Source: a virus. From it: DNA of 12,968 nucleotides. The notes below the pieces were generated by a model. That model made no database searches and was not told the origin of the DNA. It worked only from the letters and a program-made list of their open reading frames with translations. Positions 1 to 12,968 of this stretch are shown in pieces. Position 1 is the stretch's first letter. Each line of letters opens with the position of its first letter. The translations under genes were made by a program, and so were the position numbers. Where the stretch lies: IMG/VR virus record IMGVR_UViG_3300045988_034679, positions 1-12,968 of that record. One strand, given 5' to 3'.

Positions 1-173
1 GGGATTACCTAATAATATACTAATGATACGGCTTCCCCCATAAGCACAGCTAATGGCGAACCAACAGCCACAGCGGCCATGACCAGGACCGGCCGCGACC
101 TGGCCGCGACCTGGCCACGACTTGGCCACGACTTGGGCCACAGCGCCAGAGGCCGCAGCTCTTACGCCACGGC
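1..173. repeat. Left inverted terminal repeat (173 bp, perfect match to right end)
   Basis: Manual base-by-base reverse-complement comparison: 1-173 equals rc(12796-12968), with the first mismatch at 174 vs 12795. It begins GGGATTACC, followed by an AT-rich stretch (4-30) and then a GC-rich section with tandem repeats. Confidence 0.97.
91..134. repeat. Four tandem 11-bp repeats GGCC(G/A)CGAC(C/T)T inside the left ITR, with degenerate flanking copies
   Basis: The copies are ggccgcgacct (91-101), ggccgcgacct (102-112), ggccacgactt (113-123) and ggccacgactt (124-134). Degenerate copies are ggccatgacca (74-84) and gggccacagcg (135-145). The period is 11 bp, about one helical turn. Confidence 0.9.
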
Positions 174-189
174 AAGTTTGTTACCGTTT

Positions 190-215
190 TGTAATCAAAT
201 GTAATTATTTGTAAC
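190..215 (+). promoter_or_regulatory. Three TGTAA(T/C) motifs at exact 10-bp spacing upstream of the left promoter (possible regulator site, bend or UP-like element)
   Basis: The motifs are tgtaat at 190-195, tgtaat at 200-205 and tgtaac at 210-215, in AT-rich context just outside the ITR. Confidence 0.3.
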
Positions 216-225
216 TGGATACTAC

Positions 226-258
226 GGGCCGGAGTGGTATAATAATAGTGGGCCGGAG
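226..258 (+). promoter_or_regulatory. Left (early) promoter: extended -10 TGgTATAAT (235-243) bracketed by a 9-bp direct repeat GGGCCGGAG (226-234 and 250-258)
   Basis: A consensus TATAAT at 238-243 carries a TG at 235-236. No good -35 lies at 17-18 bp spacing, so the promoter would depend on the extended -10. It is the only promoter-like element between the ITR and the first gene. The direct repeats abut the -10 and the predicted +1. Confidence 0.5.
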
Positions 259-301
259 AGCGGCTCCGAGGGATACATCTGATATACAGGAGGAATTGAA
301 C

Positions 302-481
302 ATGAAATTGTATGATAAGAACACCGGCGTTGTTATTGCGGAGATCATTGCTAATCACAGTATGACCATTGATGATGCGCTGACCCTTATGCACTTTAGT
401 ATTGACGATGAGGGGCAAATATTTGATGACGATAACGGTGTCTATCTTGATGCATGGTATGATGATCTGGAACTGAAGTGA
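302..481 (+). CDS. Hypothetical small, highly acidic early protein (59 aa; 11 Asp + 3 Glu vs 3 Lys, no Arg)
   Basis: ATG at 302 follows a CAGGAGGAA RBS (288-296). The ORF-track start at 248 has no RBS. It is the first gene after the left promoter and has no recognisable motif. Confidence 0.6.
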   Translation: MKLYDKNTGVVIAEIIANHSMTIDDALTLMHFSIDDEGQIFDDDNGVYLDAWYDDLELK

Positions 482-489
482 GGTGTCAT

Positions 490-1167
490 ATGAAAGTATT
501 GATTGCTTGTGAGGAAAGCCAGACGGTTTGCAAGGCGTTCCGGGCGCTGGGACACGAGTCGTACAGCTGCGACGTGCAGGAGCCGAGCGGAGGCCGCCCA
601 GAGTGGCATATTTGGGGGGATGCGCTGGAGGCCGTCAAAGGCGGAGAGATCGTCACCATGGACGGACAGCGGCACGACATAAGCAAGTGGGAACTGCTGA
701 TCGCACATCCGCCATGTACCTATTTGAGTTCTTGTAGCGCTGTGCGTCTGTTTAACGCAGATCATACAGTCAGGGACTTGGCACGGGAGCGCAAGGGATG
801 GGTGGCAAAAGAGTTTTTCCTGGCGCTGCTGCGGTGCGGGGTGGAGCGGATCGCCGTGGAAAATCCCACACCGCTTCGGCATTTTGGATTGCCGAGATAT
901 GACCAGATCATCGAACCATATATGTTTGGGGATCCCTGGAGGAAGCGAACGTGTTTGTGGCTGAGAGGCCTTCCACCGCTCAGGCCCACCAACACGGTAG
1001 AGCCGAAGGGCCTGTGGGTGGGGGCCACCAGCAGACGGAGGGATGCTTCCAGGAAGGTACAATCCAAGTATGTGCTTAAATCGAATCGGGATAGTAAGAT
1101 CAGGGCAAAGACGTTTCACGGTATCGCCGCCGCTATGGCGGCGCAGTGGGGAGGTGATATCAGATGA
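490..1167 (+). CDS. Minimal C5-cytosine DNA methyltransferase-like protein (225 aa) with PPC and ENP motifs but an atypical motif I
   Basis: ATG at 490 follows GAGGTG (480-485). AHPPCTYL (PPC at 709-717) resembles catalytic motif IV. AVENP (ENP at 859-867) resembles motif VI (ENV). The N-terminal KVLIACEESQTVCKAFRALGHESYSCD looks like a Rossmann beta-alpha-beta ending in an acidic residue, but it lacks the FxGxG loop. The C-terminal TFHGIAAAMAAQWGG resembles the motif X region. The protein resembles a short phage family usually annotated as DNA cytosine methyltransferase. Confidence 0.6.
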   Translation: MKVLIACEESQTVCKAFRALGHESYSCDVQEPSGGRPEWHIWGDALEAVKGGEIVTMDGQRHDISKWELLIAHPPCTYLSSCSAVRLFNADHTVRDLARERKGWVAKEFFLALLRCGVERIAVENPTPLRHFGLPRYDQIIEPYMFGDPWRKRTCLWLRGLPPLRPTNTVEPKGLWVGATSRRRDASRKVQSKYVLKSNRDSKIRAKTFHGIAAAMAAQWGGDIR

Positions 1168-1367
1168 AATGCCCATGCACGAAAGACTGCCAGCACAGGA
1201 CTGTTAATTGCCGGTGCGTGTGTCGTGAATTTAAGGAATACGACCGGCAGCGCATGGAGGGCTATGTGGAGCGAGATCGCCAGCGGGCGAAGGCGCAGGC
1301 CCTGTCCCCGTTTAGCAATCCTCGATTTAACCGGTACGCACGACACAACAAAGAAAGAGAGGTTTAA
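1164..1367 (+). CDS. Hypothetical Cys-rich small protein (67 aa; C-x-C-x3-C-x6-C-x-C-x-C followed by a basic tail); possible zinc-binding nucleic-acid binder or regulator
   Basis: ATGA overlap with the upstream stop (1164-1167) and a GGAGGTG RBS at 1150-1156. There are six Cys in the first 20 residues, and the C-terminal half is Arg/Lys-rich. Confidence 0.55.
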   Translation: MKCPCTKDCQHRTVNCRCVCREFKEYDRQRMEGYVERDRQRAKAQALSPFSNPRFNRYARHNKEREV

Positions 1368-1368
1368 T

Positions 1369-1455
1369 ATGCTTATGTTAGCAATCACAGTATCCGCAGG
1401 TGCGGCGTGGCTATTACTAAAATGGTTGGAGGCTATCGAGTATGACGAAGAATAA
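1369..1455 (+). CDS. Possible 28-aa membrane micro-protein (MLMLAITVSAGAAWLLLKWLEAIEYDEE)
   Basis: ATG at 1369 lies 1 nt after the upstream stop, with AGAGAGG at 1356-1362. It has one hydrophobic helix and an acidic tail. It is very short, so coding status is uncertain. Confidence 0.3.
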   Translation: MLMLAITVSAGAAWLLLKWLEAIEYDEE

Positions 1456-1615
1456 AACCGGCGAACAGCCGTGTCCCTACAACATCGGCGTCAAGTGTGA
1501 TATCGGCGCTTGTGAGTGCGCCAGATGCGGCTGGTATCCCTTGGAGGCATACCGCCGCCGCAGGGACTTGCAGCAGAAGGGGGGCGCACCATATGGCCAG
1601 CAAGCCCAAAAGTAG
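1442..1615 (+). CDS. Hypothetical Cys-rich mini-protein (57 aa, below the ORF-track size cut-off): MTKNKTGEQPCPYNIGVKCDIGACECARCGWYPLEAYRRRRDLQQKGGAPYGQQAQK
   Basis: Hand-translated. ATG at 1442 lies 9 nt after GGAGG (1428-1432) and the stop TAG is at 1613-1615. The pattern is C-x7-C-x4-C-x-C-x2-C followed by an RRRR patch. It fills a stretch otherwise covered only by an RBS-less GTG extension of the next gene. Confidence 0.45.
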   Translation: MTKNKTGEQPCPYNIGVKCDIGACECARCGWYPLEAYRRRRDLQQKGGAPYGQQAQK

Positions 1616-2243
1616 TGTTCGGGGCCGTCGTGTCAAGTATTCTTTCCCGATCAGCGACTATCAGCTTCCCAGCGCCCTTGCAGAAAATTACAGCAAAAAG
1701 CAGCTGTTGTCCGAGTACAGGGCGCTGCGTATAGAAGCACAGGCCCGCTTGAAAGCGTTCCAAGGGACGAAATACGAGGGGAGTTATGCGTACCAAGCTA
1801 ACAAGCATTTTTTGGCCGGAGCATCATCCCCTTATAAATTAAACAAGCGCCAGCTGGCAGCGGGGCTGTCGGAGCTGGCCAGCTATCTGGAATCCCGAAC
1901 CAGCACACTATCCGGGACACGGTCGCAGGTGCGGAAGTCCATCAACACCTTTAAGGATCGCTGGGGTATGAACTGGCTGAACGAGGCCAATTATGAGGAG
2001 TTTACCAAGTTTTTGGAATTTGCCCGTGAATTGAAGGGGCAAAGGTATATCTTTGAGGAGGTCGTGGCCTTATACCGGAGCGCCAAATATTCGAAAATTC
2101 CTTTGGATCGTGTGAAAAGCAATTTCAATTTTTATTTGGATCAGATAGACATTACCGACGATCCAAACACAGCACGGCAATATCTCCGGCGAGATCCCAG
2201 TAAGCGGCGGAGCGCCAAAACTGTGAGAGGTAAGATGCGATGA
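1593..2243 (+). CDS. Terminal protein (replication primer) candidate, 216 aa
   Basis: ATG at 1593 follows a GAAGGGGGG RBS. Its stop overlaps the DNA polymerase start (ATGA at 2240-2243), the same TP-then-polymerase order and coupling as phi29 genes 3 and 2. The termini are basic (MASKPKSSVRGRR..., ...KRRSAKTVRGKMR) and the protein is predicted helical. No other unassigned protein of suitable size is present in the replication module. The assignment rests on synteny and elimination, not on a motif. Confidence 0.5.
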   Translation: MASKPKSSVRGRRVKYSFPISDYQLPSALAENYSKKQLLSEYRALRIEAQARLKAFQGTKYEGSYAYQANKHFLAGASSPYKLNKRQLAAGLSELASYLESRTSTLSGTRSQVRKSINTFKDRWGMNWLNEANYEEFTKFLEFARELKGQRYIFEEVVALYRSAKYSKIPLDRVKSNFNFYLDQIDITDDPNTARQYLRRDPSKRRSAKTVRGKMR

Positions 2244-4306
2244 AAACAACACCTATGGTGCGGGCCGCCGATGTTGACTTGGCATTTTTGATGCAAGTAG
2301 GGTTTGTCAAGCGTAAGCGAGGGAATCCGGCGAAAAAGCAAGAGCGTAAGTATCTGGACATCATTACAGCCTTTGACATCGAGACCAGCCACCACCCAGA
2401 ACGGGAGGAATCCCTGCTTTACGTCTGGCAGTGGCAATTTGGCGCCTTTTACACAGTCTATGGCCGCACATGGTCGGAACTGCGTTTATTCATCCAGCGG
2501 CTTCTCCGGGTGCTGGACGATCACGGCGATGTGTCTTTGGTCGTTCTGGTGCACAATTTGTCATATGAATTTCAGTTTCTGCGCGGCATTTATACATTTC
2601 AGCCGGATGAGGTTTTTGCCGTGGACTCCCGGCGCGTCCTGAAATGCACGATGGCCGACAAGCGCTTGGAATTCCGCTGTGCTATGCTGCACAGCAATAT
2701 GTCGCTGAAGCAGTATACAAAAAAGATGCACGTTGACCACCAGAAGCTGGACGGCGATGAATTTGACTACAAGGAACTGCGCTTTCCCGACACTCCATTG
2801 ACCGACCGGCAGCTGCAATACTGCCAGAACGACGTCTTGGGGCTGGTGGAAGCGTATCAGGCCGAAATGGCCAGAGATAAGGACAACCTTTATTCCGTCC
2901 CCATGACCAGCACCGGCTACGTCCGAAGAGACTGCAAGCGGGCAATGCGTTTTTGCTCCAGCAAAATGATCCGTGATTTACAGCCGGACGTGGAGCTGTA
3001 TAAAATGCTGCGAGAGGCGTTCCGGGGCGGTGATACACACTGCAACCGCCATTTTGCAGGTAAGGTGCTGGACAATGTCCATAGCGCAGATCGCAGCAGC
3101 AGTTATCCCGATGTGATGTGTAATTGCAAGTTTCCCATAGGCCGCTTTTACGCCTTTGACGGTGGTGTCGACCGTGCCATGGTTTTGTATCATCGTGGCT
3201 ATGCGCTGCTGCTGCGTGTCCGGCTGTGGGATGTGTCCTTGGCAGATCCGGCATGGGGGTTTCCGTATATCAGCTACGCCAAATGCCGGAATACGATCCA
3301 TCCGGTTTTGGACAATGGCCGCATCCTGTCGGCGGAGATGCTGGAGACTACGATCACAGATATTGATCTACGCATCATTTTAGACCAGTACGATTTTAGT
3401 GACATCGAGATCTTGACAGGCTACCACAGCAGATATGACCGGCTGCCGGCGCCGCTGGTGCGCTGCACCATCGACTACTACCAGACTAAAACAAGACTAA
3501 AGGGCGTGGTGGATGAACACGGCCACGAATCGCCCTTTTATAGCAAAAGTAAAAATTTGCTGAACTCCCTGTATGGCATGATGGCGCAGGATCCCGTGAA
3601 GCAATCCATATTGTTTGAAGAAGGCAGCGAATGGTTGTTCCGGCAGAAGGACGAGCCAATCGAGGATTTGCTGAACGCCAACAGTAAACGAGCGTTTTTG
3701 TGCTATCAGTGGGGCGTCTGGGTGACAGCTTGGGCGAGGTACCGACTGCAAGAGGGTTTGCGCATGGCCGACGGCGAACACAGCTGGCCTATTTACTGCG
3801 ATACCGACTCCGTTAAATACATTGGTGATGTGGACTGGGCGGAATATAACAAGAAGCGAATGGCCGACAGTCTACGTTCTGGCGCACACGCAACAGACCC
3901 ACATGGCGAGGAGCATTACATGGGCGTCTACGAGCAGGAGCATACGGCGAACCATTTTGTCAGTCTGGGAGCCAAGAAATACGTCACAGTTTATGAAGAT
4001 GGCAAATGCCGCTGCACCATCGCCGGAGTGAACAAGGAGAAGGGCGGCGCAGAACTTGACAAGCATGGCGGTATTACTGCTTTTAAGTCCGGCTTTTTGT
4101 TTGTGGACGCTGGCGGCACGGAGAGCGTTTATAATGACGATGTGGTGCCGCACACGGAGGAATGGCAGGGACATCGTTTTGAGATGGTGCCTAACATCCT
4201 GATTCGGGACAGCACCTATCGTGTCGGCATTACACAGGACTATGAGGACATCCTGAGCGATCCCGATTACTATTTACTGTGTAAGCACCGGTTCAGGGAT
4301 AAATAA
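2240..4306 (+). CDS. Protein-primed family-B DNA polymerase (688 aa)
   Basis: ExoI is FDIET (D46/E48). ExoII is HNLSYEFQF. ExoIII is YCQNDVLGL. Motif A is DRSSSYPDVM (compare phi29 DVNSLYPAQM). Motif B is KSKNLLNSLYGMMAQ (Kx3NSxYG). Motif C is YCDTDS (3794-3811). The KxY motif is GAKKYV. This order and these motif variants are typical of phi29-type polymerases. Confidence 0.95.
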   Translation: MKTTPMVRAADVDLAFLMQVGFVKRKRGNPAKKQERKYLDIITAFDIETSHHPEREESLLYVWQWQFGAFYTVYGRTWSELRLFIQRLLRVLDDHGDVSLVVLVHNLSYEFQFLRGIYTFQPDEVFAVDSRRVLKCTMADKRLEFRCAMLHSNMSLKQYTKKMHVDHQKLDGDEFDYKELRFPDTPLTDRQLQYCQNDVLGLVEAYQAEMARDKDNLYSVPMTSTGYVRRDCKRAMRFCSSKMIRDLQPDVELYKMLREAFRGGDTHCNRHFAGKVLDNVHSADRSSSYPDVMCNCKFPIGRFYAFDGGVDRAMVLYHRGYALLLRVRLWDVSLADPAWGFPYISYAKCRNTIHPVLDNGRILSAEMLETTITDIDLRIILDQYDFSDIEILTGYHSRYDRLPAPLVRCTIDYYQTKTRLKGVVDEHGHESPFYSKSKNLLNSLYGMMAQDPVKQSILFEEGSEWLFRQKDEPIEDLLNANSKRAFLCYQWGVWVTAWARYRLQEGLRMADGEHSWPIYCDTDSVKYIGDVDWAEYNKKRMADSLRSGAHATDPHGEEHYMGVYEQEHTANHFVSLGAKKYVTVYEDGKCRCTIAGVNKEKGGAELDKHGGITAFKSGFLFVDAGGTESVYNDDVVPHTEEWQGHRFEMVPNILIRDSTYRVGITQDYEDILSDPDYYLLCKHRFRDK

Positions 4307-4349
4307 TGTTAATAAGCTGGCGGGCTTTAACACGCAGAAAGGAAATAAT

Positions 4350-4631
4350 ATGAGAAACCGTAACACAACGAGCGAGACCAAGACCTACAATCACGAGTAT
4401 GTCGTGAGACGAGCAGTGCAGTTTGACAAGGACGTGCTGTTTGACCTGACCATCGACGACTTTACCATCTACGGCTGCCGTGTGGTGGAGGGCAAAAACG
4501 GCGACTTTATCAGCCTCCCCTCCCGCAAAGGGAAGGATGGGAAGTACTGGGGGATCGTCTACAAGCGCTTTAGTCAGGACGAAACAAGTCTGATCCTCGA
4601 CCTGGTCAGCGCCGCTCTGGCCGGGGTGTAA
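4350..4631 (+). CDS. SpoVG-like nucleic-acid-binding protein (93 aa)
   Basis: The core FDLTIDDFTIYGCRVVEGKNGDFISLPSRKGKDGKYWGIVYKRFSQDETSLILDLV parallels B. subtilis SpoVG [54 protein letters not shown], as I recall that sequence. The RV-x-x-G-x-NG-x-F-(V/I)-x-x-PS-(K/R) signature is shared. Confidence 0.7.
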   Translation: MRNRNTTSETKTYNHEYVVRRAVQFDKDVLFDLTIDDFTIYGCRVVEGKNGDFISLPSRKGKDGKYWGIVYKRFSQDETSLILDLVSAALAGV

Positions 4632-4633
4632 TA

Positions 4634-5680
4634 ATGAATCTTTACGACCGCCGAGGCTATCTGAACATTCCCGATATCCTAAAATGTAAGCAGCCGTTTA
4701 TTTTCGTGGTGGGCGGTCGTGGCACCGGTAAAACCTTCGGCGCACTGCGGGAAGCGCGTCGGAGGTATCGTGCCACAGGTGCGCGCTTTATGCTGCTCCG
4801 TCGGATGCAATCCCAAGTGGACTTGATAAACAAGCCGGAGTATTCGCCCTTTAAGGCTGTTGACCGTGTTGACCACCAGTGCACGGTCAGCAGATCGCTA
4901 AGCAAATACACGGCGGGTTTTTACGACGGCCAGCTGGACGAACACGGCACACCGCAGGTGACAGGGGATTGCATCGGGTATACCTGTGCGCTGTCCACCA
5001 TATCCAATATGCGTGGCTTTGATGCCAGCGACGTGGATCTGATTATCTTTGACGAGTTTATTCCCGAGGCACATGAACGACCAATCAAAAATGAGGCTGC
5101 AGCCCTGTTTAACGCATATGAGACGATCAACCGCAACAGGGAGCTGGACGGCGTTGCACCTTGTCAGCTTTTATGCCTTGCCAATGCCAATGACTTGGGC
5201 AATCCCGTGTTTTTGGAATTGGGGCTTGTCCGAAAAGCGGAGTCCATGCGCCGCAAAGGACAGGAGGTTTACATCGATCCCAAGCGGGGAATTTGTATGA
5301 TCATTTTGCAAAAGTCCCCCATTTCCCGTGAGAAAACGGCGACAGCATTATACAAGCTTGCAAAGGACGGAGAATACAATCAGATGGCCATTGGGAACAC
5401 CTTTGCAGGTGCCGGTGAAAACAGAATCCAATCCATACCACTACAGCAGCTGGTGCCGGTGGTGACCGTCGGGGAACTGACCGCATACCGCATCAAGGGC
5501 CAGAAGGATTATTATTTTAGTACGCATCCATCCGGGAATCCGCCGCATTACGGAACCGGGCCGTCCGAGCTGCGCCGTTTTAAGGTGACATTTTTGTGGT
5601 TGTGGGAGGCGTATATGCAGCGCCGTGTGGTATTCGAGGACCGCCTCTGCGAGATCTTGCTATTAAAATACTTGACATAA
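4634..5680 (+). CDS. DNA encapsidation (packaging) ATPase, phi29 gp16 type (348 aa)
   Basis: Walker A is FVVGGRGTGKTF (phi29 FVIGARGIGKSY). FMLLRRM matches phi29 FIYVRRY. Walker B is DLIIFDEFIPE (phi29 TIVFDEFIRE). NRNRE...LLCLANANDLGNPVF matches phi29 FRNRERVRCICLSNAVSVVNPYF. The size is similar to gp16. Confidence 0.9.
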   Translation: MNLYDRRGYLNIPDILKCKQPFIFVVGGRGTGKTFGALREARRRYRATGARFMLLRRMQSQVDLINKPEYSPFKAVDRVDHQCTVSRSLSKYTAGFYDGQLDEHGTPQVTGDCIGYTCALSTISNMRGFDASDVDLIIFDEFIPEAHERPIKNEAAALFNAYETINRNRELDGVAPCQLLCLANANDLGNPVFLELGLVRKAESMRRKGQEVYIDPKRGICMIILQKSPISREKTATALYKLAKDGEYNQMAIGNTFAGAGENRIQSIPLQQLVPVVTVGELTAYRIKGQKDYYFSTHPSGNPPHYGTGPSELRRFKVTFLWLWEAYMQRRVVFEDRLCEILLLKYLT

Positions 5681-5701
5681 TCCTTTGTGTTCTGGTATTA
5701 T
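5672..5701 (+). promoter_or_regulatory. Strong sigma-A/sigma-70-type promoter for the lysis and structural genes: TTGACA (5672-5677), 18-bp spacer, TGgTATTAT (5693-5701)
   Basis: It has a consensus -35, a near-consensus extended -10 and an AT-rich upstream stretch (tattaaaatac). It sits in the largest internal non-coding gap and shares the TGGTAT(A/T)AT core with the left promoter. Confidence 0.65.
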
Positions 5702-5706
5702 GTAAA

Positions 5707-5779
5707 GGAGGGAGGGCCGCACAATGTCAGCCCCGGAAGGGCGTGCGTGAGTTTGACAGACTCCTGATGCCCTCCCTCC
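5707..5779 (+). other. Predicted structured RNA at the 5' end of the late transcript: an 11-bp terminal helix closing a three-way junction
   Basis: GGAGGGAGGGC (5707-5717) pairs perfectly with GCCCTCCCTCC (5769-5779). Inner helix CGCAC/GTGCG (5718-5722/5743-5747) encloses the hairpin GCCC-cggaa-GGGC (5730-5742). A second small hairpin is GAGT-ttgacag-ACTC (5749-5763). The 5' arm starts at about the predicted +1 of the 5672-5701 promoter. Confidence 0.45.
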
Positions 5780-5803
5780 CAACAAAATAATCGAGGTGAC
5801 AGT

Positions 5804-6166
5804 ATGCGAGTCTATGTAATTGGCGTGGCAGTCTTTATTGTGGTGGACATCCTGTCCGGCCTGTTGAACGCGCTGTATAACAAAGAGTTCAAGTCTAGTG
5901 TGATGCGCAACGGGCTGTTCCACAAGGCGGGCGAATTTTTGGTCTTGGCCCTGCTGTATCTGGTGGAGATCGAGTCGGCGGCCATGGGCTTGGATGCGGG
6001 CCTGCCACTGTTTAAGACCGGCTGCGGCTATGTGGTGCTGATGGAGATCGGAAGCATCATCGAAAATTTGAAAGTGTTTACGCCAGGTATCGACAACATC
6101 ATCCGAAAGGAGACAGCAACCAATGGCAAAGAAAATTTTTCTGAGTCCCAGCGATCAGACGAGTAA
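5804..6166 (+). CDS. Holin (phage_holin_4_1 / TcdE-like family), 120 aa, three predicted TM segments
   Basis: GAGGTG RBS at 5793-5798. The hydrophobic segments are VYVIGVAVFIVVDILSGLLNALY, EFLVLALLYLVEI and GCGYVVLMEIGSIIENL. The VDxxSG...K...S...G...HK and E-x-x-S-I-x-EN motifs are typical of that holin family. It lies immediately upstream of the endolysin and overlaps it. Confidence 0.8.
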   Translation: MRVYVIGVAVFIVVDILSGLLNALYNKEFKSSVMRNGLFHKAGEFLVLALLYLVEIESAAMGLDAGLPLFKTGCGYVVLMEIGSIIENLKVFTPGIDNIIRKETATNGKENFSESQRSDE

Positions 6167-6794
6167 CCGGTACGCCTACGGCAACACCTCCGAGGCGATC
6201 CAGTGCGGCAAAATTGCGGTGGCACTGGAGGAGTCGCTGACACGCTGCGGCTTTGCGGTACGGCTTGTGCATTATCAGGATATGGCCACAAAATGTGCAA
6301 ATGCCGATGCATGGGGAGCAGACCTTTACATCCCTATCCACACCAATGCCTGCAACGGCGAGGTGTCCGGCACACGCATCTATACCTATGACAACACCGG
6401 AGAGGGCCGTAAGGCCGGACTGTGTGTCTATCACAATCTGGCGCCGCTGACACCGGGAAAGTCTGACAATATCAGCGCAGACGCCAGCCTGTACGAAATT
6501 CGCAAACCGGCGGCGCCGACCGTTTACTGTGAATGCGAGTTTCACGACGTCCCCGAGACGGCCCGCTGGATCATCACCCATACTAAAACTATCGCTGAAG
6601 CAATCTGCAAGGGCGTGTGCGAATATTTCGAGACCCCCTACAAGGCCCCGGACGAAGCGCCCAAAACCGAAACACTGTATCATGTACAAGTCGGAGCGTT
6701 CCGGGATCGGAAGAACGCCGAAAAAATGTTGGAATCCGTGAAATCACACGGATTTAAGGCTTTTATTAAGGAGGAAAAGCATGAAAGCAACTGA
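6123..6794 (+). CDS. Endolysin: N-acetylmuramoyl-L-alanine amidase (Amidase_3/MurNAc-LAA-like) with a C-terminal SPOR domain, 223 aa
   Basis: The N-terminal IFLSPSDQTSNRY...E...ADLYIPIHTNA...CEFHD pattern matches amidase_3-type zinc amidases. The C-terminal YHVQVGAFRDRKNAEKMLESVKSHGFKAFIKE (nt about 6675-6779) is a typical SPOR repeat. The start overlaps the holin 3' end by 44 nt. Confidence 0.75.
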   Translation: MAKKIFLSPSDQTSNRYAYGNTSEAIQCGKIAVALEESLTRCGFAVRLVHYQDMATKCANADAWGADLYIPIHTNACNGEVSGTRIYTYDNTGEGRKAGLCVYHNLAPLTPGKSDNISADASLYEIRKPAAPTVYCECEFHDVPETARWIITHTKTIAEAICKGVCEYFETPYKAPDEAPKTETLYHVQVGAFRDRKNAEKMLESVKSHGFKAFIKEEKHESN

Positions 6795-7125
6795 TATTAT
6801 CGCATTGGCAACTGCTGGCTACACGGCGGAGCAGATTGCCGTCATCGCAAAGGCTGCCAAGGAGCAGCCGGTACAGCAGCCGGTACAGCAGCCGGTACAG
6901 CAGCCGGTACAGCAGCCGGTACAGCAGCCGGTACAGCAGCCGGTACAGCAGCCGGTACAGCAGCCGGACGGTTATGCGGATCTGATGGGCAGGCTTGACG
7001 CACTGACCACACAGATCCAGCAAAGCGCTATCCAGCATAGCGCACAGCCCCCTGAGGATACGGCCGATGATATCTTGGCAAATATCATTGACCCGCCCGA
7101 ATTTCACCCGACAAACAGTAAATAA
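6781..7125 (+). CDS. Scaffolding protein candidate (114 aa) containing a perfect (PVQQ)x8 repeat
   Basis: AAGGAGG RBS at 6768-6774. It lies directly upstream of the capsid gene and has a size and position comparable to phi29 gp7. Helical N- and C-terminal parts are joined by the Q/P-rich repeat. The function is inferred from synteny only. Confidence 0.5.
   Translation: MKATDIIALATAGYTAEQIAVIAKAAKEQPVQQPVQQPVQQPVQQPVQQPVQQPVQQPVQQPDGYADLMGRLDALTTQIQQSAIQHSAQPPEDTADDILANIIDPPEFHPTNSK
6865..6967 (+). repeat. Perfect 12-bp tandem repeat CAGCCGGTACAG x8 plus a partial ninth copy (cagccgg)
   Basis: Read directly: copies start at 6865, 6877 and so on to 6949, and the partial copy is at 6961-6967. 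The repeat is in frame and encodes QPVQ units. Confidence 0.97.
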
Positions 7126-7137
7126 GGAGGTATAATT

Positions 7138-8352
7138 ATGGCTGGTGAAATGACTTTCAAACAGGCCGCCACGCTGCTGAACAGCATCCAGCAGCAGGCA
7201 ACCGGTCAGGCGGCATTGGTCGCAACTGACATCCACAGCTTTATCAGCTGCGCAACCACCACGTTGGCCACGGGCTATGATCCCGTGATCAACGCTATCA
7301 ATCAGGTGCTGACACGCACCATCTTTTCCACACGGCCCTATTCCCGCAAGTTTAAGGGGCTGGAAAAAACGGAATCCCAGTGGGGCAACCATGTCCGCAA
7401 GCTGTCCATTGCGGACAAGCCCGTCAGCGATGACGATCGCCACAAGTGGCCGGTGGCATATGATGCTACCCAGACCTCCAATCCGCTGGGCAACGGCCAG
7501 AGCGTAGACCAGGATGTCATCAACAAGCCGGAGATCCTGCAGACCAATTTCTACGGGGCCAATGTGTGGGAGGACTGGTATACGATCTTTAAGGATCAGC
7601 TTGACAATGCTTTTACCGGCCCCGATCAGCTGGGAAGCTTTATGGGCATGGTGGCGGGGAATATGTCCGATAAGCTGGAAAACATCCGGGAAAATATTTC
7701 CCGCGCTGCTCTGGCCAACTTTATCGGCGGCGTGGTCAACGAGGCGCAGGACGGCCGTGTCGTGCATCTGCTGACGGAGTACGAAGCGGCGACCGGCCTG
7801 AAGTTTAATACGCCGCAGGAAGTGTATCAGCCTGCCAACTTCAAAGCGTTCATCCAGTGGGCTTATGCCAGAATCGCCCAGATCTCTGACATGATGACGG
7901 AGCGGACGGAGTTGTTCCAGACGGTGGTCAATGGCAAGCACGTCATCCGGCACACACCAAAGGCCATGCAGCGGGCTTTCTTGTACGCTCCGGCTCGCCA
8001 TCAGATGAACATGATGGCCATCGCAGACACCTACCACGACGGCCTGCTGACCATGCCGGAGACGGAGACCGTCAACTTCTGGCAGTCGGCAGAGACACCC
8101 GACTCCATCAATATGAAGGTGGCCCGCATCGGCACCAATGGGGCCGTGACTGTGTCCACAGAGGCCATTGAACAGGCAGGGATCTTCGGCGTCATCATCG
8201 ACACCGAGGCCGTCGGCGTGGCCAACACCCAGAGCTGGAGCAATCCGTCTCCGTTCAACGCCAGAGGCGGCTATACCAACATCTGGATGCATGAAACGCA
8301 GCGCATCTACAACGACCACACGGAAAAGGGCGTTGTGCTGCTGCTTGACTAA
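7138..8352 (+). CDS. Major capsid protein (404 aa)
   Basis: It has the strongest RBS in the genome (AAGGAGG at 7124-7130). Its position is scaffold-capsid-tail as in phi29, and it is followed by a stable hairpin. There is loose resemblance to the N-terminal region of phi29 gp8 (..R....S.....KFKG...). The assignment rests mainly on synteny and size. Confidence 0.7.
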   Translation: MAGEMTFKQAATLLNSIQQQATGQAALVATDIHSFISCATTTLATGYDPVINAINQVLTRTIFSTRPYSRKFKGLEKTESQWGNHVRKLSIADKPVSDDDRHKWPVAYDATQTSNPLGNGQSVDQDVINKPEILQTNFYGANVWEDWYTIFKDQLDNAFTGPDQLGSFMGMVAGNMSDKLENIRENISRAALANFIGGVVNEAQDGRVVHLLTEYEAATGLKFNTPQEVYQPANFKAFIQWAYARIAQISDMMTERTELFQTVVNGKHVIRHTPKAMQRAFLYAPARHQMNMMAIADTYHDGLLTMPETETVNFWQSAETPDSINMKVARIGTNGAVTVSTEAIEQAGIFGVIIDTEAVGVANTQSWSNPSPFNARGGYTNIWMHETQRIYNDHTEKGVVLLLD

Positions 8353-8359
8353 TGCGCAA

Positions 8360-8384
8360 GGCCGGGCGGCTAAGCCGCCCGGCC
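8360..8384 (+). terminator. GC-rich hairpin after the capsid gene (partial terminator, attenuator or mRNA 3' stabiliser)
   Basis: GGCCGGGCGGC-taa-GCCGCCCGGCC forms an 11-bp perfect stem starting 8 nt after the capsid stop. It is followed only by a short ATTT, so the U-tract is weak. Confidence 0.5.
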
Positions 8385-8418
8385 ATTTACGAAGGTGGTG
8401 ATACATTTGTTTCCTGTA

Positions 8419-9792
8419 ATGCTATGGAAATTTTCCAAGACGGAAAACAGCACAAAGAGACCTTCGGACAGCGACTCCACCATGGTGGACTGCGAGACCA
8501 ATAACGACTTTGACCTGCTGCATCCGGTATTTGTGTTTAGCTTCCGTGGCGGCAGCAGCAATCCCACGCAGTATAATTACTGCTATGTGGGAACTTTTAA
8601 GCGGTATTACTGGATCACTGGGTGGACTTTTAGCAATGGCCAGTGGGTCGCTGATTGCACCGTGGACACGCTTGCCAGCTGGAAGCCGGATATTGGAGCA
8701 CTAAACGCATATGTTCTCCGATCCGCCGCAGAGTGGGACGGCAACATCATTGACAATATGTATCCGGCAAAGACGACTATTAGCACGGAACTGTCTGCCG
8801 GGGAGAAAAGCCCGTGGAGTACAGACCCTGAAAAAGGCACCTTTGTTGTGGGCATCATTGGGGCTGGGGCCACACAATATATCATGTTCACCAAGTCCGC
8901 CTTAGATTTATTTCTGAAGTACATTTTGTCGGATGCGTACGCAGTTAAGGCAATGGGGATATTGGGGTTTGCGACAAATAGTGAATTAAAAGCGGTGCTT
9001 GACCCCCTGCAATACATTTCCAGTATTGTATGGCTTCCGTTCCAAAAAGTCGGGTCTATCATTGACACTGTCAGGGTTGGCTATGTGGACGTGCCAGTGG
9101 CCGCAAGTAGTGTAGATTCGGGAATCGGATACGCAGAAATTAACTGGAATTTGCGGCGTCATCCCATGGCGGCAAGCCGTGGAGCCTATATGAACGCATC
9201 TATGGCGCACTACGATATGTTTTATCCGCCATTTGGTGTCATATCTCTGGATCCCGTGGTGTGCGCTAATACGGATACTATACATACGTTAGCCTTGGTA
9301 GATCTTAAAACTGGGCACGGCACGTTGATAGTCCAAACCAAAGAAGATAGGATTGTATCCCGAATCAGTGGCCAAGTTGGGATGGCATATCAGATCGGGC
9401 AGGTGACGGCCCCCGGATATGGTTTGGGCGCACTTGTTACTGATGCAATAGGCGTCGGCATGGCAGCGATTACTGACAACTACACCGGAACGATCGCCGG
9501 AGGGCTGTCCGCCATAGGAAACGCTGCCAAGGGGCGCATTCCAAGTGCTAATACCGTGGGCGGTGCTGGAGGCGCTGATCAGCTTCGAGGGATCCCCGCA
9601 ATGCTGTACGAATGGGAGATCCCAGTCGACGAAGATTTGACAGACAGGGGCAGACCTTTGTGCCAAGTACGGCGCATCAATTCGCTGCATGGATATGTTC
9701 TTTGTAGCGATGTTGAAGTTGATATACCGGCAACACAAAATGAAATTAGCGCAATTAAAGCATTCATGGAGGGGGGCTTTTACTATGAGTGA
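8419..9792 (+). CDS. Tail knob / distal tail tube protein (phi29 gp9-like), 457 aa
   Basis: The N-terminal block YNYCYVGTFKRYYWITGWTFSNGQWVADCTVDTLASW parallels phi29 gp9 [42 protein letters not shown], as I recall that sequence. It lies between the capsid and connector genes as in phi29. The start is uncertain: ATG at 8419 (MLWKFSKTENSTKRP) or TTG at 8407, 8 nt after GAAGGTGG. Confidence 0.65.
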   Translation: MLWKFSKTENSTKRPSDSDSTMVDCETNNDFDLLHPVFVFSFRGGSSNPTQYNYCYVGTFKRYYWITGWTFSNGQWVADCTVDTLASWKPDIGALNAYVLRSAAEWDGNIIDNMYPAKTTISTELSAGEKSPWSTDPEKGTFVVGIIGAGATQYIMFTKSALDLFLKYILSDAYAVKAMGILGFATNSELKAVLDPLQYISSIVWLPFQKVGSIIDTVRVGYVDVPVAASSVDSGIGYAEINWNLRRHPMAASRGAYMNASMAHYDMFYPPFGVISLDPVVCANTDTIHTLALVDLKTGHGTLIVQTKEDRIVSRISGQVGMAYQIGQVTAPGYGLGALVTDAIGVGMAAITDNYTGTIAGGLSAIGNAAKGRIPSANTVGGAGGADQLRGIPAMLYEWEIPVDEDLTDRGRPLCQVRRINSLHGYVLCSDVEVDIPATQNEISAIKAFMEGGFYYE

Positions 9793-9889
9793 TGCTAATA
9801 GACAAAGTCCTGCGCCAGTGCTGTCTGGAAAATTGCCTGTGTGGCTGCTGGCATATATCAAAAAAAGAAAACGGAGGCGAAAACTATGA
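9785..9889 (+). CDS. Possible 34-aa micro-protein (MSDANRQSPAPVLSGKLPVWLLAYIKKRKRRRKL) bridging the tail-knob and connector genes
   Basis: ATG at 9785 lies 7 nt after GGAGGGGGG (9769-9777) and overlaps the tail-knob stop. Its own stop overlaps the connector start (ATGA at 9886-9889). It has a hydrophobic core and a poly-basic tail. It is very short, so coding status is uncertain. Confidence 0.3.
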   Translation: MSDANRQSPAPVLSGKLPVWLLAYIKKRKRRRKL

Positions 9890-10800
9890 CCGGCGCACCA
9901 TACTTCTACGACTATCAAAACGCAATCATTTCCCGGACCACGCCTAACACTGTCCATGTCAAAAATGTTGGGCTGACACGGTTTTTCCAGCGCTATCTGC
10001 TGCAAAAAGCCATCAGTGTGTTCAAGTGGGATATGCCCCGCACATGGAGTCGGGACTATTTCCTGTATACCCTGTACTGCTGGGGCTTCGTCGCCATCGT
10101 CAACACGGACAAATTCGGCGTTATCCCGCAGGGCTGCGGCCTAAAGGGCTATAATGTCTTTTACCAGCCCCGATCAGTGATTATCCAAAATCCCCTTATC
10201 AGGCGAACGCTGGAACCGGAAATTGGGCGGAACTGTGTACTGCTAAAGCTGCAGCCGGATTTTTGCGGCATCATGGACTTGGTCAGCTTTTATGCGCAGG
10301 AGATGGCGCTGGCCTCCGAGGCGGTGGACGTCAATCTGCTTAACAGTAAGCTGTCCTATGTGTTTACGGCTTCCAATAAAAACGCAGCGGAGAGCCTGAA
10401 AAAGCTGTATGACCGTATCGCCAGTGGCGAGCCTGCCGTGGTGGTGGACAAGGCGCTGTATAATGATGATGGTACCGTGTGTTGGGAGGCATTCCAACAA
10501 AATGTCGGACAGAACTACATCGTCAGTGATCTCCTGTCCGATCTCCGCAAAATCGAGGCAGAATTTGACACCAAGGTTGGAATCCCCAACGCCAACACAG
10601 ACAAAAAAGAGCGGCTGATCTCCGACGAGGTTAATGCCAACAATGTGGAAACACGGAATCTCCCGGAGCTGTGGCTGGAATCCCTCCGGCTTGGATGTGA
10701 GGAGGCCCGCAAGATGTTTGGTATCGACTTGTCCGTGGACTGGCGCAATGATCCCGAGCAGGCCGTGCAAACCGAGGAGGTGCCCGACGATGAGGAGTAA
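9886..10800 (+). CDS. Head-tail connector / portal (phi29 gp10 upper-collar type), 304 aa
   Basis: GGAGG RBS at 9873-9877. FFQRYLLQKAISVFKWDMP...GFVAIV parallels phi29 gp10 [21 protein letters not shown]...GYVGFY. GIPNANTDKKERLISDEVNANNVE parallels [24 protein letters not shown]. The tail is acidic and the size is nearly identical to gp10. Confidence 0.9.
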   Translation: MTGAPYFYDYQNAIISRTTPNTVHVKNVGLTRFFQRYLLQKAISVFKWDMPRTWSRDYFLYTLYCWGFVAIVNTDKFGVIPQGCGLKGYNVFYQPRSVIIQNPLIRRTLEPEIGRNCVLLKLQPDFCGIMDLVSFYAQEMALASEAVDVNLLNSKLSYVFTASNKNAAESLKKLYDRIASGEPAVVVDKALYNDDGTVCWEAFQQNVGQNYIVSDLLSDLRKIEAEFDTKVGIPNANTDKKERLISDEVNANNVETRNLPELWLESLRLGCEEARKMFGIDLSVDWRNDPEQAVQTEEVPDDEE

Positions 10801-11317
10801 GCTATCTGTACTGGGCATCTATAACTATGACGGCCAGATTTTCGACCGGCTGGAGCTGCCGGACGGCGTTGACAAGGATACCGTGGTCAACAGTATACTG
10901 CTGGAGTGTGCCGATCTGGAGGTGCTGTATCCGGTGCCGGTCGTGCTGCAAACGGCCATCGGCTTGTGGTCTAAATCCATGCTGCCCAGCTGGGAACGCC
11001 AGTATCGGGCCATCACAGCGGAATACGATCCGATTGAAAACTACAACCGGATGGAAGATTGGACGGACACGGCACACTCCGAGGGCGCAGGCAGCAGCGA
11101 GGTGGCGGGCTTCGACAGCGGCAAAATGACACCAAGAGACGGCAGCCAGAGCGCCGCAGATTCCAACAGCGACCACCACGGACGCATCCACGGCAACATC
11201 GGCGTGACCACCTCAACGGCCATGGTGCATGAGGAAGTCAACCTTCGGCGCAAGCTATCCATGGTGGACATCATCGTCAACGACTTCAAAAGCAGATTCA
11301 CTCTGTTGGTGTATTAA
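10790..11317 (+). CDS. Structural protein, lower-collar / head-tail adaptor candidate (175 aa)
   Basis: ATG at 10790 lies 9 nt after GAGGAGG (10774-10780) and overlaps the connector 3' end by 11 nt. It occupies the gp11 position (after the connector, before the appendage). A conserved-looking block is LPDGVDKDTVVNSILLECADLEVLYP...WS...W...YDPIENYNRMED. The function is inferred from position only. Confidence 0.4.
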   Translation: MRSKLSVLGIYNYDGQIFDRLELPDGVDKDTVVNSILLECADLEVLYPVPVVLQTAIGLWSKSMLPSWERQYRAITAEYDPIENYNRMEDWTDTAHSEGAGSSEVAGFDSGKMTPRDGSQSAADSNSDHHGRIHGNIGVTTSTAMVHEEVNLRRKLSMVDIIVNDFKSRFTLLVY

Positions 11318-11329
11318 GGAGGTAACACA

Positions 11330-12784
11330 ATGGCGTTTGAACAATTCCCCTATACAAATTTACACGACCTCAACTTGGATTGGCTGTTGAAAACGGTCAA
11401 GGACACCAAGGACATTCTCGACAACACCGACATCCCGCAGCACGTCAGGGACGAACTCACTGTAATGTATAACGATGGGCGGCTGGAGAAGCTGGTCAAC
11501 GAGCGGATTCTGGCCGGAATACAGGCAAAGGTGGACGCCAACGCTGAAAGCATCGGGACGGCGAAGGAGGACATTGCAGCGAACGCGGAGGCCATCGGGA
11601 ACTTGAAGGTGACTGCAACGCTGGCGATGTTATCGGCACCAGACGCAGTGTCCGGTGATCCTGATCGTGGATATTCGCTGTGTATGGTGATCTACAACAA
11701 AGATTTCTGCGTCGTTTACGACCACGGCAATGACAGCGCAAACCGGCTGTTGGAGTATCTGCGGCAGAATGGCGTCAAGAAAATTACGGCATTCGTCGGC
11801 TCCCACTATCACAGCGACCATTGCACACTGGCGGGCGTTACGACAATTCTCAACAGCGGGATTCCTGTGGAAAAGTGGTATCTGCCTAACGGCGCCGTCA
11901 GTTGGGATGCATTCAAAGGCGTGAATTATCAGGCCGTACAGACCAGCATCAAGAATGCAATTACCGCCGCCGGCGGCGTGATCGTGGAGCCTGCCACGGA
12001 GGGAATGATGGTACAGGTGTCCAAAGCCGTCTATCTGGAGTTTTACAATGTTGCAGCACCAACCATCGCAGGGTATTACAACTACACGCTGGACGAGGAT
12101 TTGACCGACACCGGCAACACCAATTACAACAACTTTTCCATGTGCGCCCGGCTGCGAGTCGGGGACAAAATTCTGGCGCTGACCGGCGACATCGAAGAGC
12201 CTGCACAAGATAAGATGTTCCCCATCGTGCAGGGCGTGGACGTGATCCAGTTACCACACCACGGACTTGATCTCCGGGACAGCCACACCTTTATCCGTTC
12301 CATGGGAGCATCCGTCTATTTGACTGCGGCATATGGCATCGCAAGGTTTTACCGGCTGCAGTATCTCAGCAATGCGATGCTGCATAGGGCGATCATGTCC
12401 GGAAATTCCCTGTCCACGCTGGGCGGAAAAACCATCGAAATGGTATTTGGTTACAATGGATGCTATGTAACGGCGCCGGGGGCGCCCACGCCAATAGGGA
12501 CGTTTGGAGAAAGCATCCCGGCGGGCAGCGACTTCAACGACTATCGGGAAATCGGGTTTGCGGGGTATGTCCAGAATGCCAGCGTTGCGGCCAAGGTTGC
12601 CAATATGCCGGGGGCTTCTGGTGGCCGTCTCTGGGTAATAGCCAGCAACCAAAACAGCCAGCCTCACGGTAGTCTGGTGCAGGTATTCCTCCCTGCGTTT
12701 AGCTATGCGCACCCGGAGGTTAGTATTCGGATGCTGGATGATGACGCATGGAAGCCCTGGAAGACGTTCAAGACAGCCGACTGA
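11330..12784 (+). CDS. Tail appendage / receptor-binding protein with an embedded metallo-beta-lactamase-fold hydrolase domain (484 aa)
   Basis: AAGGAGG RBS at 11316-11322. The N-terminal FPYTNLHDLNLDWLLKTVKD is a fibre-anchor-type motif, followed by the repetitive AKVDANAESIGTAKEDIAANAEAIGNLK. The MBL motifs are SHYHSDH (HxHxDH, 11801-11821), NNFSMCARLRVGDKILALTGDIEE (12182-12199 covers TGDIEE) and IQLPHHG (12251-12265), as in ComEC-type MBL domains. The C-terminal 150 aa or so, ending ...GRLWVIASNQ...LVQVF...IRMLDDDAWKPWKTF, resembles fibre knob domains. Confidence 0.75.
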   Translation: MAFEQFPYTNLHDLNLDWLLKTVKDTKDILDNTDIPQHVRDELTVMYNDGRLEKLVNERILAGIQAKVDANAESIGTAKEDIAANAEAIGNLKVTATLAMLSAPDAVSGDPDRGYSLCMVIYNKDFCVVYDHGNDSANRLLEYLRQNGVKKITAFVGSHYHSDHCTLAGVTTILNSGIPVEKWYLPNGAVSWDAFKGVNYQAVQTSIKNAITAAGGVIVEPATEGMMVQVSKAVYLEFYNVAAPTIAGYYNYTLDEDLTDTGNTNYNNFSMCARLRVGDKILALTGDIEEPAQDKMFPIVQGVDVIQLPHHGLDLRDSHTFIRSMGASVYLTAAYGIARFYRLQYLSNAMLHRAIMSGNSLSTLGGKTIEMVFGYNGCYVTAPGAPTPIGTFGESIPAGSDFNDYREIGFAGYVQNASVAAKVANMPGASGGRLWVIASNQNSQPHGSLVQVFLPAFSYAHPEVSIRMLDDDAWKPWKTFKTAD

Positions 12785-12795
12785 TACAGCCGGAG

Positions 12796-12968
12796 GCCGT
12801 GGCGTAAGAGCTGCGGCCTCTGGCGCTGTGGCCCAAGTCGTGGCCAAGTCGTGGCCAGGTCGCGGCCAGGTCGCGGCCGGTCCTGGTCATGGCCGCTGTG
12901 GCTGTTGGTTCGCCATTAGCTGTGCTTATGGGGGAAGCCGTATCATTAGTATATTATTAGGTAATCCC
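12796..12968. repeat. Right inverted terminal repeat (173 bp)
   Basis: It is the exact reverse complement of 1-173. It begins 11 nt after the stop codon of the last gene. Confidence 0.97.
12835..12878. repeat. Mirror copy of the four 11-bp tandem repeats inside the right ITR
   Basis: The copies are aagtcgtggcc (12835-12845 and 12846-12856) and aggtcgcggcc (12857-12867 and 12868-12878). This is the reverse complement of 91-134. Confidence 0.9.

Follow-up and report, generated by a model that had tools for sequence, protein, structure and literature searches.

Two questions are raised by the viral DNA recorded in IMG/VR as IMGVR_UViG_3300045988_034679: whether it is an entire phage genome, and what lies in the 124-nucleotide (nt) gap between its genes for a DNA packaging ATPase and a holin. 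The stretch analyzed, called the window here, spans all 12,968 bp of the record, with a GC content of 53.4%, a coding density of 93%, and 16 assigned genes. The window is very probably a complete linear genome, that of an uncultured phi29-like podophage of the human gut that does not integrate and for which several steps of the life cycle can be proposed. This genome type is not new. Although the original prediction, made from the sequence alone, had implied that the genome was novel as such, this was an overstatement, as the type is abundant in IMG/VR and GenBank and has been reviewed, with more than 2000 phi29-like database entries that include many human-metagenome genomes of 12–15 kb and with six hallmark proteins defined (PMC11476376). 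The new result is a conserved structured RNA of 79 nt in the gap. Judged by its fold and its genomic company, it has about an even chance of being a miniature prohead RNA (pRNA) for the motor formed by the connector and the gp16-type ATPase.

The gap holds a late promoter-like site of the sigma-70 kind and, directly 3' of it, the structured RNA, which has a minimum free energy z-score of −4.3. An 11-bp closing helix leads into a three-way junction with two arms. The first arm is composed of a 5-bp helix, a 7-nt bulge on the 5' side, a 4-bp helix, and an invariant CGGAA loop, and the second is a 4-bp hairpin with a 7-nt loop. Five nucleotides of the second loop (UGACA, 5754–5758) are complementary to five in the bulge of the first arm (UGUCA, 5725–5729).

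We followed this RNA into related genomes with two covariance models, the first built from 9 sequences and the second (R2) from 31. The RNA is present at full length in 83 related loci, including GenBank entries MT835998 and MT836263 and 11 contigs binned into metagenome-assembled genomes (MAGs). Distant relatives, with DNA polymerases (Pol) 48–61% identical to that of the window, score 39–88 bits (E = 2e-6 to 4e-20). Across 36 distinct sequences, 94.4% of alignment cells are paired, compared to 37–46% when the partners are slid, and compensatory changes occur in 23 of the 26 pairs. A structure-blind MAFFT alignment gives a similar picture (98% paired, 35–40% in controls), and all four helices are backed by covariation. 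The pairing between bulge and loop exists in at least 10 co-varying versions, such as AGUCA/UGACU, GACCA/UGGUC, GCACA/UGUGC, GGGCA/UGCCC, and GUGCA/UGCAC. This helix is 97.9% paired in a gap-free alignment, with double changes in three of its five pairs; the complementarity extends over 4–5 bp in most variants and over 3 bp in L023 and L003 (L numbers denote related loci).

The position of the RNA is as constant as its fold. In 30 of 30 lineages inspected, a TTGACA-17-TATAAT promoter ends 5–8 nt upstream of the closing helix, so that the RNA would form the exact 5' end of the transcript; the ribosome-binding site of the first late gene follows the RNA after 25–40 nt. L012 carries an insertion of ~550 bp (5662–6212) between the ATPase gene and the RNA. 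In a sister clade that comprises MT835998 (L001) and loci L059–L072, the block containing the Pol and ATPase genes is inverted, and the RNA heads the structural operon (L001 1045–1125).

A search of the window against Rfam 15 at E ≤ 5 found no family for this RNA and no pRNA match; the only matches were chance ones, in a 12-nt repeat and on the strand opposite the RNA. We also ruled out any known ribozyme or riboswitch, given that no Rfam family matches and the junction strands are not conserved.

Several features point toward a miniature pRNA. When the functional 120-nt pRNA of phi29 is folded, it has the same topology as the 79-nt RNA, comprising helix A, the junction, the C helix, the CE bulge, the E hairpin, and the D hairpin. 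Both the dot-bracket folds and the covariation place this domain I topology in the window's RNA, and the complementarity of CE bulge loop and D loop that marks a pRNA is present as well. In phi29 pRNA, these two loops are known as the "right-hand" and "left-hand" loops, and pRNAs with only ~12% sequence identity share the same fold (PMC5066667). The proposal therefore rests on the topology, the co-varying loop–loop pairs, the invariant hairpin loop, which appears suited to protein binding, and the presence of the RNA alongside a motor type that depends on pRNA. At an evenly balanced level of confidence, we further propose that it is a true prohead RNA, about two-thirds the length of the functional phi29 molecule, used by a large and diverse clade of gut phages that includes the isolated Amedibacillus phages AD70P2 and AD70P3. 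pRNA has been stated to be known only in phi29 and related Bacillus phages (PMC5066667, 2016; PMC11476376, 2024), and we found no description of one outside these phages, or in gut phages, in the open-access full-text literature.

Other observations weigh against this proposal. The closing helix of phi29 pRNA is ~25 bp long, with a CCA bulge that binds the ATPase, and is accompanied by a domain II, whereas the RNA described here has 11 continuous, unbulged base pairs and no domain II. The predicted transcription start leaves the closing helix no room to extend, and there is no second domain before the next gene. We detected no terminator 3' of the RNA in the window, and therefore the RNA may never exist as a free molecule. 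The absence of Rfam pRNA matches counts on the same side, as does model R2, which, with filters off, finds no match in phi29, nor in Cp-1, AD70P3, astrithr, or HM2. In MT835998, moreover, the RNA stays with the late operon and not with the ATPase gene.

The RNA may instead be a cis-acting 5' leader of the late mRNA, with the bulge–loop pairing forming an intramolecular pseudoknot, a tenable reading that we consider somewhat less probable than a pRNA. Such a leader could act as a stabilizer, a partial terminator or attenuator, or a regulator-binding site. The RNA always lies between the promoter and the first late gene, close to the ribosome-binding site; it travels with the late operon in the rearranged MT835998; many lineages have a tract rich in A and U after the closing helix; and no covariance model links it to phi29 pRNA. 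The ribosome-binding site, however, lies outside the conserved fold, and we saw no second fold into which the RNA could switch. That phages with a pRNA-dependent motor type should have exactly the topology of pRNA, along with co-varying bulge–loop pairs, would otherwise be a large coincidence. The complementary sequences themselves would fit pairing between molecules as well as within one.

Many lineages also carry the sequence UCCGG just 3' of the RNA (10–20 nt downstream in L056, L044, L053, L036, L033, L061, L083, L001, and others), the exact complement of the invariant CCGGA of the hairpin loop. This could be an additional cis pairing with the loop, a possibility that leans toward a role in cis, but UCCGG is missing downstream of the RNA in the window's own lineage.

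The equivalent gap after the ATPase gene in AD70P3 (6302–6367, minus strand) and AD70P2 (L104) contains a promoter and an AT-rich RNA with the same three-way-junction topology. The hairpin loop reads CCGAA in AD70P3 and UCGAA in AD70P2, and an AUCC bulge is complementary to a GGAU second loop. This RNA came to light only when the equivalent gap was folded, and the fold alone is not significant (z = −1.1). Because AD70P2, AD70P3, and their host are in culture, the idea of a miniature pRNA is directly testable. If the RNA is a true pRNA, RNA-dependent packaging would be widespread among phi29-like phages, beyond phi29 and its close Bacillus relatives, which would answer whether other gp16-type motors need RNA. 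A natural pRNA as small as this one, with its short A helix, would also show which parts are truly needed by the motor and would offer RNA nanotechnology a natural minimal scaffold with many co-varying kissing-loop pairs. Even as a late-operon leader, the RNA would be a new phage motif with strong support.

The identification of the window as a phi29-like phage rests on its proteins. Five of the six hallmark proteins of the phi29-related set (p2, p16, p8, p9, and p10) are found, and the match to the sixth, p11, is weak. The gene set listed in the original prediction largely holds: profile searches support Pol, the ATPase, the capsid protein, the connector, the holin, the endolysin, and a SpoVG homologue, and the knob is supported by its fold, while the terminal-protein (TP) candidate has no match. 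That list did not include a methyltransferase-like gene, two Cys-rich open reading frames (ORFs), a lower-collar candidate, the metallo-beta-lactamase (MBL)-fold domain of the appendage, or the structured RNA.

A Clostridia-like member of the Bacillota is a plausible host, as the original prediction suggested on sequence grounds. Ribosome-binding sites are of the GGAGG type, the endolysin (Amidase_3 plus SPOR) has its nearest cultured relatives in Bacillota phages, the methyltransferase-like protein is best matched among cultured phages by a [Clostridium] scindens phage, and the appendage domain resembles a teichoic-acid esterase. The GTDB MAG bins of relatives are mostly Clostridia (Clostridiales, Christensenellaceae, Ructibacterium, and Eubacteriales). 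Other relatives fall into MAGs of Treponema, Spirochaetia, Bacteroidales, and Coprenecus, which qualifies the prediction, and Gram-negative bacteria do have small phi29-like phages. We nevertheless consider a Gram-negative or spirochaete gut host unlikely; the bin taxa themselves are not trustworthy as host evidence because 13-kb contigs bin unreliably.

It is very unlikely that the window represents a phage-plasmid, meaning a linear element that is temperate or plasmid-like, and not a virulent phage. Some phi29-like entries are indeed phage-plasmids (PMC11476376), and relatives of the window have been binned into MAGs. Searches of the window's proteins against Pfam, PHROG, NCBIfam, and PADLOC, however, revealed no lysogeny, partition, or defense genes, including no integrase, repressor, or toxin–antitoxin genes, and each sizeable ORF in this densely coding genome is accounted for. 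Each of the 14 relatives in GTDB MAGs is a stand-alone contig (2.3–15 kb overall, 12.5–15 kb in 10 cases), and none lies within chromosomal sequence.

The inverted terminal repeats (ITRs) lie exactly at the two ends of the window, and direct comparison of their 173-bp arms confirms the perfect complementarity described earlier. The terminal 46 nt (GGGATTACCTAATAATATAC...) are identical in the window and in the independent contigs L006, L009, and L010, and the terminal 30-mer GGGATTACCTAATAATATACTAATGATACG begins or ends L006, L009, L010, and, with one base changed, L012, all assembled from other samples. L006 and L009 have this 30-mer at both ends. In the three genomes assembled at both ends (the window, L006, and L009), the inner ITR differs from genome to genome, including in the number of 11-bp repeats, yet matches between the two ends of each one. 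Farther relatives have termini of GGGATTAC-like sequence. Among 114 Pol relatives in IMG/VR, none of the 80 contigs retrieved exceeds ~15 kb; 12 contigs are 95–98% identical to the window in Pol and 84–94% in DNA, and megablast of the whole window against GenBank phages gave no match. An ENA assembly, whose scaffold is cut within the 11-bp repeats, and a Logan assembly contain the identical genome.

Because independent assemblies share these termini, we conclude that the genome is complete and its ends genuine, in agreement with the prediction of a full, ITR-bounded phi29-like genome. An inverted-duplication chimera or a truncated piece of a larger genome, either of which would have overturned that prediction, is extremely improbable: misassembly can yield a perfect ITR at contig ends, and L102, assembled separately from the same sample, is missing the outermost 118 nt at each end, but it breaks off within the 11-bp repeats, where short-read assemblies typically fail, and both ideas are largely refuted by the termini that near and distant relatives have in common, by the separately matching ITRs of L006 and L009, and by the sizes of ~100 relatives, every one 12–15 kb or smaller. 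Ends that are kept identical fit origins at both ends, as protein-primed replication would lead one to expect, and replication likely originates in the terminal 46 nt. The 11-bp repeat has the length of one helical turn, and its copy number varies from ~0–1 to 5 across near-identical genomes in which the terminal 46 nt are unchanged. The repeats could possibly serve as phased sites for an origin-binding protein.

From the genes and ends, we propose the following course of infection. The appendage, with its MBL-fold esterase, would probably act on a wall polymer, and a hydrophobic loop of the knob would probably form a membrane channel, as phi29 gp9 does. Early transcription would start from a promoter next to the inner edge of the left ITR and cover the cargo genes and those for the TP candidate, Pol, the SpoVG-like protein, and the ATPase. 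The family B polymerase would start replication at both ends with terminal protein as primer, and the terminal GGG run would permit sliding-back initiation at an origin in the conserved 46 nt. A strong promoter at the ATPase end would produce the late transcript, which would encode the RNA, holin, endolysin, scaffold candidate, capsid protein, knob, connector, lower collar, and appendage. The packaging motor is composed of a phi29-type connector and a gp16-type ATPase, and the RNA at the 5' end of the late transcript would probably act as a miniature prohead RNA, its bulge pairing with the hairpin loop of a neighboring copy to form a ring that docks the ATPase on the connector. The genome is thus one more member of a large, catalogued group of 10–15 kb phi29-like phages, and it affords a clean view of a complete genome of this lineage with real ends.

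Table 1. Features of the 12,968-bp window, with positions counted from its first nucleotide (aa, amino acids; RBS, ribosome-binding site).
Feature	Position	Strand	Evidence and remarks
Left ITR	1..173	.	100% complementary to 12796–12968
11-bp tandem repeat within ITR, ~5 copies, GGCCACGACCT-like	83..141, mirrored 12828–12878	.	Tandem Repeats Finder (TRF)
Early promoter-like site, TGGATA-16-TGnTATAAT	216..243	+	Consensus scan, 10/12 matches, extended −10; putative function
Small early ORF, 59 aa	302..481	+	GGAGG RBS; called in independent assemblies
Methyltransferase-like accessory protein, 225 aa	490..1167	+	phrog_757 "DNA methyltransferase", 2.8e-51
Cys-rich small protein, 67 aa	1164..1367	+	Kept in 9/12 close relatives; no family match
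Second Cys-rich small ORF, 57 aa	1442..1615	+	Called in independent assemblies; overlaps start of TP candidate; no family match
TP candidate, 216 aa, all-alpha, basic C-terminus	1593..2243	+	Position directly upstream of Pol; ATGA overlap
Protein-primed family B DNA polymerase (Pol), 688 aa	2240..4306	+	PF03175, 47.7 bits (cut-off 25.8); phrog_1907, 7e-60
SpoVG-like protein, 93 aa	4350..4631	+	PF04026, 33 bits (cut-off 29.6)
gp16-type DNA packaging ATPase, 348 aa	4634..5680	+	PF05894, 69.3 bits (cut-off 25), residues 5–261; phrog_2150, 3.6e-34
Late promoter-like site, TTGACA-18-TGnTATTAT	5672..5701	+	Best in window, 11/12 matches
Conserved structured RNA, 79 nt, candidate mini-pRNA	5704..5782	+	Covariance-model matches, covariation, fold z-score
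Holin, 120 aa	5804..6166	+	PF05105, 48.3 bits
Endolysin: N-acetylmuramoyl-L-alanine amidase (Amidase_3) with C-terminal SPOR	6123..6794	+	PF01520, 55.2 bits; PF05036, 29.3 bits; phrog_435
Scaffold-protein candidate, 114 aa	6781..7125	+	Directly upstream of capsid gene, as phi29 gp7 and Cp-1 orf8; putative function
phi29-type major capsid protein, 404 aa	7138..8352	+	Phi29_MCP PF25622, 49.5 bits (cut-off 27), profile positions 3–321 of 323
gp9-like tail knob, ~461–465 aa	8395..9792	+	AlphaFold pLDDT 81.6 (model from 47 homologs); Foldseek to phi29 gp9
Upper collar/connector, 304 aa from ATG 9886	9886..10800	+	PF05352, 86.4 bits (cut-off 25.6); phrog_2038, 1.3e-37; GGAGG RBS
Lower-collar (gp11-like) candidate, 175 aa	10790..11317	+	Directly after connector; weak gp11 match
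Tail appendage protein, 484 aa, MBL-fold domain, HYHSDH motif	11330..12784	+	PF00753, 25.9 bits; phrog_7043 "tail protein"
Right ITR	12796..12968	.	Pairs with 1–173; right ends of L006, L009, and L012 stop at the same nucleotide

Every ORF with family support in profile searches lies on the plus strand, and the nine largest minus-strand ORFs gave no PHROG match, in line with the single coding direction predicted for the window. Compared to 11 close relatives, the third codon position of the plus frames takes 55–82% of substitutions in 13 of 16 genes (82% in the Pol gene), where 33% would be expected with no selection, indicating that the plus frames are under purifying selection. Three genes were uninformative in this test: g03b (44%), g02 (50%, 28 substitutions), and g01 (4 substitutions). 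An ORF of 546 aa that runs opposite to the scaffold and capsid genes (6766–8406, minus strand) was rejected as a shadow ORF on the basis of its codon-aligned antisense frame, the substitutions in the plus frame, and no family match. The single direction is not a trait of the whole clade, as Pol and the ATPase are encoded on the strand opposite the structural genes in MT835998. A scan of the window revealed no tRNA.

The −35 hexamer of the late promoter-like site overlaps the final codons of the ATPase gene. Several motifs resembling TTGTAA(C/T) are clustered between the ITR and the early promoter (174–214), and intergenic regions of AD70P3 are bordered by similar inverted repeats rich in TTGTAA/TTACAA (L002 7956–7997, 10923–10955, and 11683–11724). 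The motifs are possibly operator sites.

The early block begins with a variable cargo slot (307–1161), in which L006 carries ~2 kb of different DNA in place of the methyltransferase-like gene and L010 is reduced to ~90 bp; outside this slot, these two genomes are 88–94% identical to the window. Homologs of the methyltransferase-like protein carry this label in 156 phage records, the [Clostridium] scindens phage protein being 49.6% identical, and no match was found in Pfam, NCBIfam, or PDB sequences. The 59-aa early ORF had no family match in Pfam, PHROG, or NCBIfam, and PADLOC and NCBIfam searches of the small early proteins returned nothing. The two Cys-rich proteins are basic and could be zinc-binding early proteins that bind DNA or RNA.

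The terminal protein is a candidate by position and family conservation, its family comprising 397 proteins of 195–224 aa. An AlphaFold model (predicted local distance difference test score, pLDDT, 82.3) is all-alpha, and the fold recurs only in uncharacterized proteins of other small podoviruses and one Tectiviridae sp. Two comparisons with the phi29 terminal protein (gp3) weigh against the assignment: hhalign gave no match (probability 0.8%), and Foldseek against the PDB returned nothing below E = 2.9 and no fold match to gp3. The identification therefore stays positional. Pentatricopeptide-repeat matches of the TP profile in the PDB were rejected as repeat artefacts with no passing stretch.

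Downstream of Pol, the SpoVG-like protein scores 29.8 bits with the NCBIfam SpoVG model, under its cut-off, and is found in 5 of 68 distant relatives. The start of the ATPase was set at 4634 because this start keeps the GGRGTGKT Walker A motif; the protein is detected by tblastn against phi29 gp16 at 2e-16.

In the late block, the scaffold candidate contains a perfect 12-nt tandem repeat encoding PVQQ (8.8 copies, 6863–6967, TRF). The length of this repeat differs in L102, an assembly of the same genome where the reading frame is interrupted and no gene is called, and the copy number of the repeat is therefore assembly-dependent.

The knob had no match by Pfam or PDB sequence and profile searches, and hhalign gave a probability of 21% to phi29 gp9. 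Its structural model is more informative, with phi29 gp9 as the only significant fold match in the PDB and all of the top five Foldseek matches (E = 4e-12 to 1e-10, probability 1.00, TM 0.52). Residues 336–392 form a Gly/Ala-rich hydrophobic loop of low model confidence that coincides with what we take to be the place of the pore-forming loop in phi29 gp9. The DNA encoding the C-terminal half of the knob, together with a short spacer after it (~8781–9873), is unalignable among the otherwise near-identical L009, L012, L013, L014, and L016. This variability suggests diversification of host range at the tail tip.

The lower-collar candidate, present in 76 loci including AD70P3, matches phi29 gp11 over 43 columns (hhalign probability 56%, E = 1e-4), and its sole PDB profile match is gp11 (6qz9, E = 0.44). 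This putative assignment is weak and counts against the overall reading of the window. The MBL domain of the appendage is closest to the pneumococcal teichoic-acid phosphorylcholine esterase CbpE/Pce (PDB match, E = 1.7e-4) and to the MBL domain of ComEC/Rec2 (3e-9). By analogy, this suggests a putative esterase that modifies or degrades the receptor, similar in role to the teichoic-acid-degrading appendages of phi29.

Relatives place the window more precisely. Uncultured phi29-like phages of the human gut (IMG/VR 3300045988_032575, MT835998, MT836263, and the 12–14 kb "ct" genomes, PMC11476376) have the same genes, order, ITRs, and RNA in 12–15 kb. Of the two human-faecal GenBank genomes, MT836263 is 13.1 kb and MT835998 is 14.0 kb, with a Pol 54% identical to that of the window and the replication and packaging block inverted. 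The closest gut relatives differ from the window in the cargo region, the inner ITR, and the C-terminal part of the knob (about half of the protein).

Contrasts drawn originally with phi29, and the likeness to Streptococcus phage Cp-1, agree with the records. phi29 (Salasmaviridae) shares with the window a family B polymerase, the gp16 ATPase, the capsid protein, the gp9 knob fold, the gp10 connector, probably gp11, and the pRNA domain I topology. It differs in its 19.3-kb length, 6-bp ITR, divergent early and late operons, ATPase gene at the far right, and 174-nt pRNA at the left end. By tblastn to phi29, only Pol (~24% identity over partial length), the ATPase, and the connector are detectable. 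The features of Salasmaviridae (~19 kb, a very short ITR, divergent operons, and close protein similarity to phi29) are not those of the window. The phi29 proteins p4, p5, and p6, the head fibers, and gp13 had been described as lacking and were not detectable here, although for p4, p5, and p6 this reflects only a lack of detectable homology. Cp-1 resembles the window in its 236-bp ITR, its TP gene directly upstream of Pol, and its mostly single coding direction, but it is 19.3 kb long, has its ATPase gene near the right end and many more tail genes, and is linked by tblastn only through the ATPase and connector.

Among isolated phages, AD70P2 and AD70P3 (12.2–12.3 kb, labeled Guelinviridae) are colinear with the window. 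The order in AD70P3 is the gene at the TP position, Pol, small genes, ATPase, gap, small gene, capsid, knob, portal, lower collar, and tail. Unlike the window, these phages have a GC content of 27%, compared to 53%, no long ITRs in the deposited record, three small genes on the other strand, and no lysis cassette between the ATPase and capsid genes. Pol of the window is 36% identical to that of AD70P3 and 34% identical to that of Clostridium phage HM2. The Amedibacillus phages cluster apart from the Clostridium members of Guelinviridae (PMC11476376).

The Astrithrvirus group (Salmonella phage astrithr, Pectobacterium phage DU_PP_III, Acinetobacter phage Phanie, and Vibrio phage K58 g2; 10.4–11.9 kb) shares very small genomes, an ATPase gene directly after Pol, and Pol proteins 33–35% identical to that of the window. 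These phages differ in their Gram-negative hosts, a connector gene that precedes the capsid gene, no gap after the ATPase gene, and no match to the RNA models. Apart from the position of the connector gene, the isolated phage astrithr, with an ITR of 18 nt, is also colinear with the window. The suggestion that the window lies near the lower size limit for tailed phages does not hold, as smaller relatives are in culture: Vibrio phage K58 g2 at 10.4 kb, Astrithrvirus at 11.2–11.7 kb, Phanie at 11.9 kb, and AD70P2 and AD70P3.

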